This document shows, piece by piece, positions 39,001 to 42,000 of a stretch of DNA of 64,000 bases; position 1 is the first letter of the stretch; each line of letters opens with the position of its first letter. Source of the stretch: Gemmatimonadota bacterium (GTDB lineage Bacteria > Gemmatimonadota > Gemmatimonadetes > Palauibacterales > KS3-K002); contig JBDHJS010000005.1 of the NCBI GenBank assembly GCA_039586795.1, positions 67,096-131,095 on the forward strand, in the 5' to 3' direction. Made by a program: the position numbers.

Positions 39001-42000
39001 GCGGCGTTGTCGTTTCCGATCGTATCCATAATTTCAACGATCTCGCCTTCCGGAGAGACGATGTAGACCTGCCCTTCCCAGTGTGACATCAGAAGGTCGC
39101 CGGAGTTTGCCGCGCGAAAACCGTCGATGATTCCGGCACCCAGGCTGATCACGTCTCGCATGCGTTTCGTTTCGAGATCGACCGCCCGAACCATTCCGTC
39201 CCCACTATTCCCGATCAGCAGCTCGCCGCCATGGATATAGAGCCCGTTAGACCAATACACATCGTAGTGGTCCAGCCAGATCTCGAACTTGCCGTCGTTG
39301 AACCGATAGATCCGACTGTCGCGCCGCGATGACGGCCTCGTATCGGAGATGTAAATACTCCCGTCTGCGTCGATGGATAGATCGTTCGGAAAATCGACGT
39401 CAGGAATCTCGTAACGATTCAAAACTTCTCCCGACTCGAGATCGATCTCGGTCAGCGTGCGCCGCTCCGTCGTGTACAGCTTGCCGTCGTGAATCCCCAT
39501 CCCCGTAGGCGCGTTCAATCCCGACACCCATTCGAGCTCCACGATCTCGCCATCGGCCGTCAGCTTCGAGATATAGCCGCTGGGCTCCGCCTTCTGGCCA
39601 AACTGGACATCGAAGTTCGAAACGTAGAGCAGATCGCGTTCGTCATCATAGATGACCGTTTCCGGCGTCAGGAAGACGGAGTCGGTCGCCCAGACCTGCT
39701 CGACGCGGTGATGCTCCTTGATCGGCTCCAACAATTCCCGGTCGGCCCGGGCCATGAAGCCCCAGCCACCGAAGTTCTCGGCGACCATCAGGAAGATCTC
39801 GTTCAGCCCCTTTTCCAGGGTGAGTCGCACTTCGTCGAACGGGCCAACGACGCCGAGGAACGACGGGTCGCGGTGGCGGTAGGCGCTGTTACCGTAGAAG
39901 ACCTTGTTGCCGTTGAAGAAGAGGTCGATCTCGTCGCTGTAGCCGAAGGAGAGGGTGATCTCCTGGCGCTGTTCGGCGCGGACGATCGTCCGGGCCAACA
40001 CGAGCTCCGGCGATTGGCCGGTGCGCTGACGGTAGCGGGCGATGTCGACGAGGCCGGTCGGCTCCGCCGTCACCTTCTCCCAGCCACCGAAGTAGATGGT
40101 GTAGAAGCGCGGATATACATCGCGCGGTCTCGGCGGCGCCGGGAACATGCGCGAGATTTCCCAATCGATGATCGTCCCCTCCGACGCCTCGATCACGGCG
40201 GGTGGGTCGAACGCCAGGTCATCGGTCAGCGTGTAGCGGAAGTTGGAAAAGCACGCGGTCTCGTCCGCTGGACCGAGCAGACCCAGCGATCCGCGGCTAA
40301 CGCCATGCTTCAGCTCGTGGATCTGCAACACTGGCTCCGCCGAATCACCGCTGAGCACGCGAGCCTGGCTGCCCTTCACCTCCAGCTTCAGCGTGAACCA
40401 CTCCCCTTCCGGGAACTCGGCGATCGCCGTGTAGCCCTCGCCGTTGTAGAGCTGCCAGCCCGCGATGCGGTTGAAGATGGGAGTGTACTGAACGGCATCG
40501 GGATAGAGGCCGCCGCGGTGCGGTCGGATGTAGACCCGCTCGTAGTTCTCCTGCGATTGCAGCCGGAAGACGATACCAGGATAGGAACGGGAGCCGTCGG
40601 TGAGGAGGTCGACCTCGATGATTCCATTCTCGAACTCGACGTCGCTCAATACCGCAGCGCCGGCCAAGCACTCGCGGCCGCCGCGTTCGGTGAGTTCGCC
40701 GGCGGCAACATTCCAGCGATCGGAGTCCAACGGCACGGCTTCCTGAGTCCAGGCCGTGCCTGCCACGAGCAGGAGCCCGAGCACCAGGACAATGATTGGG
40801 ATAATCAGATAGCCTGTTGGAGTTCTTTCACTGAATGCGAGGATGTTGGGGCGACGAGGATGACGGCGGCTAGCGCGAAGGCGCATTGGTTTCCTCCTGA
40901 ACAGTCCCACCCGGACCACTCTACAGGCATCTACGGCGATACAGAGAGCAGGGTTTCGCACCGCTGAAGATGATGAGAATCCGTTGACGTAGCCATGCTA
41001 TGGTGGTCGCGGTCTGTGGGGCTGTTTGGGTGCGGCGCGTTGACTACCCGGCTTCGCCATCTCACGGCGAACGTACCCCCGTGGCGGAATTGGTAGACGC
41101 GCCTGTCAGCCAAATAGGTGACCGAAAGGTCGTGTGGGTTCGAGTCCCACCGGGGGTACGCCACAAGAATCTTCGAAATCACCTGCGTTCTTGACTCGCC
41201 GCAAGTGATTAGAGTATCCTTTCTGTGGCTGACAGGCAGTAAGTTTCGTCACGGAACGAGCCCGGAGGATGATCCCTCCGGGCTCAGTCTTTTGGGTGTC
41301 TTCCGCTTCAAACGCAAATTCTCAAAACCGATAGACGCCCGATAGCACCGCGTAGTGGAGCCACGCGAAGTTGTAGACCGACTCGACGTCCGCTCCGCCT
41401 TCCAGAGTGCGATATCCGCCCCTGACGCCCCAGTGGTCGTTGATGTCGTAGCCGAGCTTGAGGGCAACGTCGAACGCGCGACCGGGCCCGCCGGCCAGGC
41501 CGTCGAAATCGAACACGAAGTGCCACTTACGGGCGAACCGCCAATCGGCGGCCAGGTAGAGCAGCGGCACGAAGCCGACGTCGGTGTCCTTGCTGGTCGT
41601 GCTCCCCTGCGCCAGCTCGATCTTCGCGTCGCGGATCTTGGTCGTGAACCCGACCCACAGTTTCGTGCGCTCGCGGTCCATGAAGCGATAGCGATAGCCG
41701 AGGCGCCAGGAATTGAACTTGTAGGTCGCCTCGACGGGTTGGTCGGGCCGGTAGGTTGCGCCGGCGAAGTCAACCGGCTCAGTGAAGGTACCCGACTCGG
41801 TGTAAGACAGCGGCGCGGCGAGGCCGCGCAGGCTGTGGCGGTTGTTGATATTCCAGGTGACATAGAGGCGAACGGCAGGCCAGGGGCCATTCCCAACCAG
41901 GTCGACGAGCGAGAACCGGGTGCCCGCGTTGGTGTTCGGGATCTGCACGTCGTTTCGGCTCTGCCATACGGGTCCCGCCTCGAGCTCGATCACGAATCTC

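Follow-up and report, generated by a model that had tools for sequence, protein, structure and literature searches.

A tandem tRNA and antisense small RNA unit in Gemmatimonadota as a candidate RNA-only toxin-antitoxin pair

Results

Features of the locus

The window, that is, the whole stretch of 64,000 nucleotides analysed here, belongs to a Gemmatimonadota genome (G000) and contains two tandem RNA genes, namely a tRNA-like gene with a leader and a small RNA (sRNA) gene with its own promoter. The parts of this unit are as follows.

40972..40989, + strand: direct-repeat box of the TTGA-N7-WTGA type, predicted regulator site of the upstream promoter P1 (27/30 family units)
40999..41004, + strand: -10-like hexamer of P1, 9 nt 3' of the box, from the sequence
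41011..41074, + strand: leader; its stretch 41022-41060 is antisense, in degenerate form, to tRNA nt 8-43
about 41075..41159, + strand: class II tRNA with a Leu body, predicted toxin (ARAGORN, Rfam and the identity rules given in PMC9976931)
41102-41118, + strand: hypervariable anticodon arm of the tRNA
41109-41111, + strand: non-Leu (Gly) anticodon GCC
41191..41220, + strand: sRNA promoter P2, sigma-70-type, TTGACT-18-TATCCT, without the competence box
about 41226-41293, + strand: predicted sRNA with its own promoter, from promoter to terminator
41226..41237, + strand: 5' seed of the sRNA, complementary without mismatch to tRNA 41101-41112
41242..41256, + strand: second sRNA pairing site, inside a small hairpin, complementary to tRNA nt 5-17 (5' strand of acceptor and D arm) by cofold, conserved in the family
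41258..41293, + strand: intrinsic terminator of the sRNA
C70:17908-17992: tRNA of the second G000 unit, downstream of leuS

The tRNA-like gene reported in the initial annotation of this DNA is called Gly-GCC by ARAGORN and tRNA by Rfam (48.3 bits), and its body carries A73, A15:U48, G18G19, A20a and C2-G71. The copy reported downstream of leuS is likewise present; its acceptor 5' strand is one C shorter than that of its sister L004. Elsewhere G000 encodes a canonical tRNA-Gly(GCC) as well as five tRNA-Leu genes. P2 is the sole sigma-70-like site across 40850-41400, where 0.1 would be expected; the promoter annotated earlier as TTGAC-N17-TAnnnT stands with a corrected spacer, which is 18 and not 17 in the window copy, and a terminator is indeed predicted 3' of it at 41258-41285, in agreement with a terminator-ended small RNA.

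Collection and distribution of units

Queries excluded A35, those run on GTDB also forced R34-S35, and letters of the D arm formed part of the queries. Three of 146 candidates with less than 120 nt of downstream sequence, L222 being one, were removed, and exact duplicates were merged. We collected 108 units, which carry 93 distinct arms; most come from records of Gemmatimonadota or from unassigned contigs of metagenomes. The unit is real and phylum-wide, and its presence is patchy (17/31 genomes of the family KS3-K002). The set of 93 arms was picked by cognate rank, hence its statistics describe the units rather than test their existence, and p-values overstate significance because the rows are related.

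The only Rfam matches are to tRNA, and the unit has no Rfam family. Among 30 family units, no small ORF preceded by a ribosome-binding site was conserved; the best position was common to 4 units, with unequal lengths. A loose pattern gave at least 120 matches in viral contigs, with a longest arm complement of 0-10 nt among the matches listed, and stricter patterns gave 0, 1 and 2 matches, none of them a unit. A phage origin was rejected, as these viral matches include no unit. The window shows no phage context.

Pairing between the sRNA and the anticodon arm

The initial annotation described the seed as perfectly complementary to its own anticodon arm, and the exact match extends over 12 nt. 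In 20,000 shuffles of the 150 nt downstream, no 12-nt complement arose (best 11), and the complement is 3-8 nt for the other 44 ARAGORN tRNA calls of G000 versus 12 and 13 nt for the two units. When about 142 regions were ranked, the cognate sRNA region was in the top 5 for 30/30 family units and 57/59 metagenome matches, neither set being chosen by complementarity, compared to 0/15 canonical tRNA-Leu genes and 0/3 phage matches.

The two partners also change together. The 45 disjoint nearest pairs show 215 arm differences: a change on both sides compensates 153 of them, G-U preserves 29, and 33 are broken. All 21 anticodon switches in disjoint pairs are tracked by the sRNA; such an sRNA partner accompanies 0/15 canonical tRNA-Leu genes. 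G-U occurs 70 times and A-C 24 times, which points to pairing between these two RNA strands. Complementarity drops at the predicted +1 of the sRNA, and P2 is present in 42/45 non-metagenome units versus 2.5% of shuffles. By cofold the cognate pairs of G000 reach -14.1 and -14.7 kcal/mol, compared to -2.5 and -5.3 for crossed pairs, and the pairs tested within single genomes are mostly orthogonal.

The tRNA body and the anticodon loop

The identity rules of bacterial tRNA-Leu, as set out in passages of PMC9976931, consist of A73, A15:U48, G18G19, A20a and an intact T loop, and this set is found in the unit tRNAs. A73, which the query left free, occurs in 30/31 insert-free family and phylum units; A15:U48 occurs in 91/91 units, including 31/31 of the insert-free set (A15 was in the query), and T loops of the U54/A58 type occur in 31/31 of that set. 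There are 7 acceptor pairs in 28/31 and 5 T-stem pairs in 30/31 units, and the 8/4 or 9/3 layout (acceptor/T stem) of allo-tRNAs was not found. A 9-bp acceptor with G-CCA was considered as a hallmark of the unit and dropped, as many matches outside the units likewise have GT at -2/-1 and GCCA occurs in only 12/31.

A Leu anticodon (A35, Leu triplet) is found in 0/20 distinct arms of the BLAST-derived set, for which the query had no anticodon constraint. The 93 arms nevertheless keep Y32 in 81, U33 in 64, A37 in 86 and A38 in 78 cases, and 5-bp anticodon stems in 76, none of which was forced by the query. U33 is lacking in 29/93 arms, both G000 copies among them; its absence, ascribed to many copies in the initial annotation, is not typical of the class. 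The four all-G/C anticodons in use read the four commonest of the eight all-G/C codon sets in G000 (G34 wobble counted), an argument that is not decisive since G/C-rich loops also fit loop-loop kissing. Judged by sequence, the unit tRNAs retain both the identity elements for LeuRS and a loop of the decoding type.

Five copies carry a structured insert of ~60 nt in the T loop, and four of these have a matching sRNA. Such copies fit knock-outs, and they also fit a function for which the elbow is dispensable. The same insert was found in an unrelated tRNA remnant, and 4/5 of the arm types also exist insert-free.

The leader

The leader is modelled as a second antisense copy that would lock the nascent tRNA by folding over its D and anticodon arms, a proposal based on co-transcriptional folds, a leader co-variation test and a nascent-RNA test. 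With truncated, nascent RNA, trapping is predicted in 58/86 units versus 1/15 canonical Leu genes; the medians of this test include three units whose sRNA start is out of register (L030, L028 and L275). At full-length equilibrium, units and canonical tRNA-Leu controls do not differ significantly in their preference for the leader-trapped state (p 0.19), and for the window copy with a 70-nt leader the gap is just 0.2 kcal/mol.

The upstream promoter and competence genes

The upstream TTGAC at 40984, originally annotated as a -35 element, lies just 9 nt from the -10 and turns out to be the second half of the TTGA-N7-WTGA repeat; a sigma-70 -35 for P1 is excluded by this spacing. A TA-containing hexamer occurs ~9-11 nt 3' of the box in most family units, and we infer a P1 transcription start near 41010.

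The same direct-repeat box is common to the promoters of comEA, recA, dprA, comEC and comM, that is, to genes of DNA uptake as well as recombination, and is not shared by SOS genes. A matrix built solely from recA and comEA promoters scores above 10 bits in 28/29 unit P1 regions versus 0/29 far-upstream controls. Scores above 15 bits occur at 21/24 comEA loci of the family (2 of the misses are mis-anchored) and at 17/27 recA loci, with the motif visible in 27/27, against a background of 5/2056 ORFs. The P2 regions of 30 family units score at most 6.2. P1 thus appears to belong to the competence regulon in the family KS3-K002, with induction predicted from the common box. Outside this family the box was not detected (2/54 units above 8 bits).

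Two other regulator sites were considered. A LexA (SOS) box was rejected because 8 SOS-type genes of G000 score at most 8.4 versus 19.7-25.4 for dprA, recA and comEA (the LexA regulon being judged by lexA, uvrA, dinB/imuB and ruvA), and a PhoB box because, among the best 40 of 92 matrix matches, none above 15.9 bits lies at the pstS promoter.

Decay, loss and genomic context

The 39 sRNA matches in the 31 family genomes divide into 19 with a full tRNA, 19 with none (one by chance) and 1 at a gap, and no intact tRNA without its own sRNA was found in the family. About ten loci retain the promoter and sRNA without the tRNA, and most of the orphan sRNA seeds tested best match arms from other genomes. 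The site at leuS occurs as full, sRNA-only, terminator-only and empty, the empty state being seen in one same-genus genome, and inheritance there is vertical in two genera. A general link to leuS was discarded, as only 2 units lie there. Unit sites are variable, the downstream gene is unconserved and lies on the opposite strand in 30/48 cases, and no mobility gene accompanying the unit was found.

Discussion

A proposed toxin-antitoxin pair

The comparative evidence, namely 1) compensatory co-variation, 2) the excess of G-U over A-C, 3) LeuRS identity, 4) the loop consensus, 5) orthogonality within genomes and 6) asymmetric decay, best supports the reading already put forward in the initial annotation, an RNA-RNA toxin-antitoxin pair in which a Leu-accepting, mis-decoding tRNA would be masked by its cognate sRNA. 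That annotation had overlooked the D-arm pairing site, the putative locking role of the leader and the competence-regulon box. We consider it probable that the unit is a toxin-antitoxin pair made of RNA alone, in which the toxin inserts Leu at Ala, Gly, Arg, Thr or Asp codons and is induced at competence in the family KS3-K002.

Bacterial LeuRS, as established in E. coli, recognises its tRNA by A73 and the D/T core rather than by the anticodon. The tRNA could be charged with Leu for this reason. In the proposed sequence of events, the leader of the P1 precursor would trap the D and anticodon arms during their synthesis, which is predicted to slow maturation; the refolded tRNA would then be cut by RNase P, processed at its 3' end, given CCA and charged, and would deliver Leu at frequent codons of the five types, poisoning the proteome. 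The sRNA, made constitutively from P2, would nucleate on the anticodon loop, extend into the D arm and unfold the cognate tRNA only, the pairing itself being shown by co-variation. Specificity would diversify, since every copy requires a separate antidote. The poisoning step has a precedent in mismatched tRNAs that can be lethal to E. coli (parts of PMC5389517).

Given a toxin-antitoxin pair, the leading candidate for its role, tentatively and at somewhat less than even chance, is an addiction that penalises cells in which natural transformation has removed or replaced the locus; most of the remaining probability falls to growth arrest in the competence phase and to abortive infection. A bolder version seems less likely than not to us: a programmable, protein-free addiction with the genetic code as its poison, in which a Leu-charged tRNA with exchangeable anticodon is stocked in locked form at competence, loss or swap of the locus by transformation leads to death by mistranslation across the proteome, and orphan sRNAs serve as immune memory against incoming specificities, in line with the best matches of most orphan seeds tested to arms of other genomes.

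Alternative explanations

The same pair might act without decoding, the tRNA-like RNA occupying LeuRS, EF-Tu or RNase P, or entering the A site uncharged and triggering the stringent response. The loops without U33, the T-loop-insert copies with matched sRNA and the report, in parts of PMC5389517, that some allo-tRNAs are lethal without suppressing all speak for this. A sponge, however, has no need of a 7-nt loop with A37/A38 or of anticodons that avoid stop codons and favour frequent codons, and the distribution of the insert fits a mobile knock-out. We assign this alternative a low probability.

A host-domesticated device for dosed mistranslation or a growth brake at competence, with the sRNA as threshold and without addiction, is lower still in probability. 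The P1 box is common to the unit and the host competence genes, the vertical inheritance at leuS agrees with it, and protein toxin-antitoxin systems under competence control exist (passages of PMC11951105), but the patchiness, variable sites, same-genus empty site, frequent loss and diversifying specificity look selfish.

It is quite improbable that the tRNA-like RNA is a regulator like P4 CI or P1 C4, with leader and seed as targets, that controls termination or a downstream gene. The order of parts resembles the P4 arrangement seqA - CI - seqC (parts of PMC4825925), and hypervariable pairing would yield immunity groups. The seed, however, has its own promoter and begins at +1, sRNA-only loci persist, the orientation and lack of conservation of the downstream gene give no sign of control over a downstream phage gene, and neither a phage context in the window nor a unit among the viral matches nor an Rfam C4 match was found.

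There is very little to recommend exchanged roles, with a toxic sRNA that sequesters a host tRNA as CreT does and a tRNA-like decoy, since the seeds do carry codon-sense triplets of common codons but the G000 sRNAs reach at best -6.4 and -5.8 kcal/mol with host tRNAs, well short of the cognate values, and promoter and sRNA persist at about ten loci without the tRNA. Equally slight is the chance of DNA inverted repeats without RNA function, their similarity being maintained by template switching or gene conversion. The 5' half of the tRNA recurs, inverted and degenerate, in leader and sRNA, and inter-repeat deletions occur (L386, L391 and L374), both of which suit this reading; the G-U bias, the promoter and terminator conserved around the seed and the compensated stems within the arm (5/5 pairs in 76/93) oppose it.

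Comparison with known systems

Our literature search found no report of a mistranslating-tRNA toxin, nor of an antitoxin sRNA aimed at a tRNA anticodon. In composition the proposed pair resembles type VIII systems (SdsR/RyeA and CreTA), where both partners are RNA; here the Rfam tRNA match, the lack of a conserved ORF and the predicted sRNA suggest two non-coding partners, and the computed pairing of the putative antitoxin is cognate-specific. According to the portions covered of PMC8610362 and PMC8501985, the antitoxin of SdsR/RyeA masks its toxin by antisense pairing, as predicted for the unit sRNA, and CreT likewise hits translation via tRNA, although it does so by sequestering a rare host tRNA, unlike the unit. 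The unit further differs in that its toxin would be a mis-decoding tRNA, that no Cas proteins take part, and that its genes are tandem and not overlapping, which lets specificity co-vary. Locked type I precursors, which are under two-step control (sections of PMC11228461), take an inactive fold while nascent, a fold that in the unit is predicted for truncated RNA and not significant at full length, and an sRNA hits their active form, but their toxin is a small protein, in contrast to the peptide-free unit.

Allo-tRNAs and polycistronic irregular tRNAs (Mukai et al., PMC5389517, in part) combine identity and anticodon in the same mismatched way, are lethal when induced in E. coli and are located near toxin-antitoxin genes; they have 8/4 or 9/3 layouts and Ser identity, as opposed to 7/5 and Leu identity in the unit. 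The terms 'antisense', 'complementary' and 'Gemmatimon' are not mentioned in the main text of that article.

The C4 RNA of P1 and P7 is a processed structured RNA with complementary flanks upstream and downstream. P4 CI with seqA and seqC has the same arrangement (PMC4825925, in part), as does the unit, whose downstream element differs in being separately promoted and terminated and in being followed by no gene under control, and whose central RNA is classed by Rfam as a true tRNA. ToxTA of Haemophilus influenzae is a toxin-antitoxin system under a competence regulator (PMC11951105), and RocRp is an element-borne anti-transformation factor of elements that resist chromosome curing (PMC12378983); as described in the parts of these papers covered, they either consist of two proteins or inhibit competence genes, and none is a tRNA, unlike the unit.

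If the preferred toxin-antitoxin reading is true, a mistranslating tRNA would serve as toxin and an sRNA against a tRNA anticodon as antitoxin, and anticodon reassignment would occur naturally and diversify under the restraint of antisense RNA. A testable promoter would then link a selfish element to the chromosome-curing hypothesis, and ~90 natural tRNA/anti-tRNA switch pairs would become available. A by-product is a candidate competence box for an uncultured family of Gemmatimonadota.

Library contigs across the locus

One contig of an RNA library (X18, 217 nt, depth 2.1, no differences) starts at 41222 and extends beyond the terminator; as a contig only, from which start, strand and level are not readable, it was left out as evidence. 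DNA contigs of X2, possibly the sample of origin, span 40930-41658 as two pieces.

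The unit in the window and its surroundings

The window contains one tRNA gene (41075-41159), called as Gly-GCC by ARAGORN and as a tRNA at 48.3 bits by Rfam, with zero other families near the cut-off in the Rfam search of the window. The D arm, the long variable arm and A73 are tRNA-Leu-like, and BLAST links the gene to the tRNA-Leu genes of the source genome. This genome has five of the latter as well as a canonical tRNA-Gly(GCC), all separate from this gene. Two elements of a small RNA (sRNA) gene lie downstream of the tRNA:

41191-41220, + strand, sRNA promoter (P2), TTGACT-18-TATCCT
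41258-41285, + strand, sRNA terminator

Between them, positions 41226-41237 are the exact complement of tRNA positions 41101-41112. This 12-nt match was reached by 0 of 20,000 shuffles, and the complement length for the remaining 44 tRNA calls of the genome is 3-8 nt. A further copy of the unit, i.e., of the tRNA promoter (P1), leader, tRNA and separately promoted sRNA, is found on contig C70 of the same genome.

The window unit is flanked by an SGL-domain gene and a Pfam-less gene, and mobility genes are absent among the 56 called genes around it. In a genome of the same genus the same two flanking genes are directly adjacent and the unit is absent. In the C70 copy (C70:17908-17992, L027) the acceptor 5' strand is one base shorter than in its sister at the leuS site of genome G009, a deletion that may have weakened this copy.

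Pairing and co-variation of anticodon arm and sRNA

An all-against-all duplex test was run on 143 of 146 candidates, where a unit passes if its cognate downstream region ranks in the top 5 of ~142. The test was passed by all 30 units of the KS3-K002 family, 4 of 5 phylum matches, 17 of 31 further GTDB matches (all 14 failures lie outside Gemmatimonadota) and 57 of 59 metagenome matches; it was passed by 0 of 3 phage matches and by none of the 15 canonical tRNA-Leu genes. The 108 passing units carry 93 distinct anticodon arms. Mean entropy in the family (26 units) is 0.95 bits in the arm vs 0.25 in the remaining tRNA.

The two RNAs change together. Among 45 disjoint nearest pairs with 215 arm differences, 153 show two-sided compensation, 29 retain a G-U pair and 33 are broken, and the sRNA tracks 21 of 21 anticodon switches. 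Non-Watson-Crick positions, counted over related rows, are G-U in 70 cases vs A-C in 24, an excess that pairing between these two RNA strands would predict. Pairing is near complete at tRNA nt 27-40 and drops at nt 41-43, which corresponds to the predicted sRNA +1. The P2 pattern accompanies 72 of the 93 arms vs 2.5% of shuffles, and 42 of 45 arms outside the set selected for TTGAC. A second sRNA segment is complementary to tRNA nt 5-17, so that the modelled duplex would open both arms.

Pairing is also specific within genomes. The two tRNA/sRNA pairs of the source genome are computed to be orthogonal, with host tRNAs much weaker binders, and in 12 groups with several units each (10 genomes, a contig and a metagenome assembly) arm duplexes have a median of -23.1 kcal/mol in cognate vs -11.6 in crossed combinations. 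One locus (L335:975-2100) holds three tandem units with anticodon CGC throughout and differing stems, each with a matching sRNA and slight cross-pairing.

Distribution

By pattern search, the family has 33 tRNA-like matches, spread over 17 of its 31 genomes, and the phylum has matches in 6 of 401 genomes, the source genome counted; one of the phylum matches (L054) does not qualify as a unit. Across GTDB, the pattern of a Leu body with R34-S35 anticodon gave 55 records, 40 of them assigned to Gemmatimonadota by record titles, and a downstream complement is present in 39 of these 40. The remaining 15 comprise 13 without a complement, one Zixibacteria record whose complement spans 18 pairs, and one Planctomycetaceae record with a weaker complement (rank 21 of 142). 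The metagenome pattern, which excluded A35 alone and required TTGAC downstream, gave 78 loci. Units L228, L262 and L256 stem from genomes flagged unpublished (G437, G448) and are the sole support for nothing. The unit-like arrangements in the Zixibacteria and Planctomycetaceae records (L222, L232) may reflect spread outside Gemmatimonadota or mis-binning.

The leader

The leader, 64 nt long, repeats tRNA nt 8-43 in degenerate antisense form. Across units, the match of a leader to its own arm exceeds that to other arms (p 0.004 and 3e-5), with far-upstream DNA at chance. Growing-transcript folds of the window copy form a long leader-tRNA rod, and in nascent RNA more than half of nt 8-44 is leader-paired in 58 of 86 units, compared with 13 of 86 when far-upstream DNA takes the place of the leader and 1 of 15 for canonical Leu genes. 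In full-length RNA, leader pairing does not differ significantly from controls, with little energy separating the two states. Nascent trapping together with near-equal full-length energies fits a delay in kinetics rather than a lasting block, much as type I toxin mRNAs are controlled in two steps (PMC11228461). In these folding models the leader would act as a second lock on the tRNA.

Identity and anticodon of the tRNA

According to PMC9976931, E. coli tRNA-Leu identity consists of A73, A15-U48, G18G19, A20a and D/T contacts, and the anticodon is no part of it. A73 is retained in 30 of the 31 units where the search left this position free, A15:U48 occurs in 91 of 91 units, and the C2-G71 anti-Ser pair in 84 of 91. 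Among the 93 distinct arms the loop conserves Y32 (81), U33 (64), A37 (86) and A38 (78), and the stems vary freely. The anticodons are CGC (24), GCC (20), GCG (20), GGT (7), GGC (6), GTC (4), CTC (3) and seven rarer ones, with no stop-codon anticodon among these arms. The four all-G/C anticodons in use match source-genome codons ranked 2, 4, 13 and 5; anticodons for CCG, CGG, GGG and CCC are unused in units, in searches that excluded A35. From its sequence, the unit tRNA looks fit for charging and decoding. However, U33 is absent from both source-genome copies, the exclusion of A35 limits the decoding argument, and RNA kissing would likewise favour G/C-rich loops.

Five unit copies carry a T-loop insert, and a similar one is present in an unrelated tRNA remnant:

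L002:1664-1727, L012, L036, L040, L394: two-hairpin element of ~60 nt in the T loop
L392 (G023:C9:63931-63985): two-hairpin insert in a tRNA remnant

We read the insert as a mobile knock-out; of the five arm types carrying it, four are also found insert-free. Alternatively, it may be removed by splicing. The insert could be an IS200/IS605- or REP-like element of the non-autonomous kind.

Decay and neighbourhood

A family search based on the sRNA located 39 matches, distributed over 18 of 31 genomes. A full tRNA accompanies 19 of them, 19 lack one, and the last is adjacent to a gap. The 19 without comprise one chance match, three internal deletions and three truncated tRNAs, the remainder being orphan sRNAs or remnants. 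The tRNA-based search of the family found no intact copy missing its sRNA (30 of 30 paired); one truncated tRNA copy, interrupted by an HTH-like gene, shows no sRNA in view. At leuS, the source genome and G009 have a full unit, G017 retains just the sRNA and G001 just the terminator, and the unit is absent from G002 and G023. If the tRNA were the harmful partner, one-sided decay of this kind would be expected.

Genes beside units differ between loci. Type II toxin-antitoxin parts (HicB, two Phd/YefM, PIN, an addiction-module component and Gp49) make up 6 of 93 flanking genes vs 0 of 56 window genes, a weak control.

The P1 box and competence genes

A TTGA-N7-WTGA direct repeat, of which the upstream TTGAC is one half, is found in 27 of 30 family units. 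Other occurrences are:

Source genome, C50:34020, C24:44453, C49:792, C50:56502, and loci L419-L473: TTGA-N7-WTGA boxes

With gene names read from Pfam domains, the best matches in the source genome precede an integrase-domain ORF, a pseudopilin operon, comEA-pilB-like genes, recA, UPF0102 and recQ; weaker ones precede parDE and vapBC, and several further top matches stand before unrelated or unannotated genes. The box exceeds 15 bits upstream of comEA at 21 of 24 family loci and of recA at 17 of 27, with the motif visible in 27 of 27. It scores 19.7 at dprA and ~10 directly before comEC and comM, and was not found at uvrA (2), dinB, imuB, ruvA, radA and lexA (2). The background in 2056 ORFs is 5 above 15 bits and 29 above 10 bits. 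When the matrix is built from recA and comEA promoters alone, it picks up 28 of 29 unit promoters and none of the 29 controls. The box is not present in the sRNA promoter.

The repeat is a candidate mark of a competence regulon in this family, with comEA-pilB, recA, dprA, comEC, comM, pseudopilins, recQ, the integrase-domain ORF, parDE and vapBC as candidate members, and promoter comparison places P1, the putative toxin promoter, within it. Outside the family the box was undetected in host genes and in units, so the competence link is shown in this one family only.

The complete pstSCAB-phoU phosphate uptake operon of the window (786-5150) has no strong match to the box among the matches listed. 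In other Gemmatimonadota (L492-L510 and L480-L491), iterative promoter alignment gave a recurring ~TTCG-N-AT-N3-GTTCGG motif upstream of recA or comEA-like genes, a candidate SOS or recA operator.

Proposed mechanism and role

The unit is real and well supported as a module, and its function we infer. The comparison of units shows two RNA genes, specific two-site pairing and a nascent leader lock, as well as Leu identity, one-sided decay and a shared box. In the proposed mechanism both RNAs would be expressed, the tRNA would mature slowly and be leucylated, and mis-decoding by the Leu-charged tRNA would then be toxic; the sRNA would be labile and the tRNA induced at competence. In PMC5389517, mismatched allo-tRNAs that put Ser at Leu codons killed E. 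coli on induction, which by analogy makes a mistranslating tRNA plausible as a poison. Type VIII toxin-antitoxin systems are defined as an RNA toxin masked by antisense RNA (PMC8610362); with toxicity predicted, the unit would by this definition belong to them.

PMC12378983 describes the proposal that transformation cures chromosomes of parasitic elements, which resist in several ways. The toxin would be produced only while the locus risks replacement, and an incoming allele of other specificity could not neutralise it. If true, a risk-timed toxin with an allele-specific antidote would be a new way for elements to resist curing. Alternatively, the unit may serve competence-phase arrest or abortive infection.

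In the literature searched (mostly open-access main texts), we found no tRNA described as co-varying with an anti-anticodon sRNA, and the papers listed there have zero occurrences of the terms 'toxic tRNA' and 'anti-anticodon'; some unit tRNAs could be listed in the supplement of PMC5389517.

Other Leu-body tRNAs

Leu-body tRNAs with Gly anticodons (GCC, ACC) also occur on viral contigs L073, L119 and L137 and at L233 and L257, with no antisense partner nearby, and are possibly natural missense tRNAs of another kind. On viral contigs L056-L175, many tRNA-like phage genes combine D and T arms of the Leu type with an irregular, enlarged anticodon/variable region. In Saccharibacteria records L216 and L261, a Leu-body tRNA with an ACC anticodon has its anticodon arm repeated ~50 nt downstream; the repeat is direct, not inverted, and resembles an integration-site duplication.
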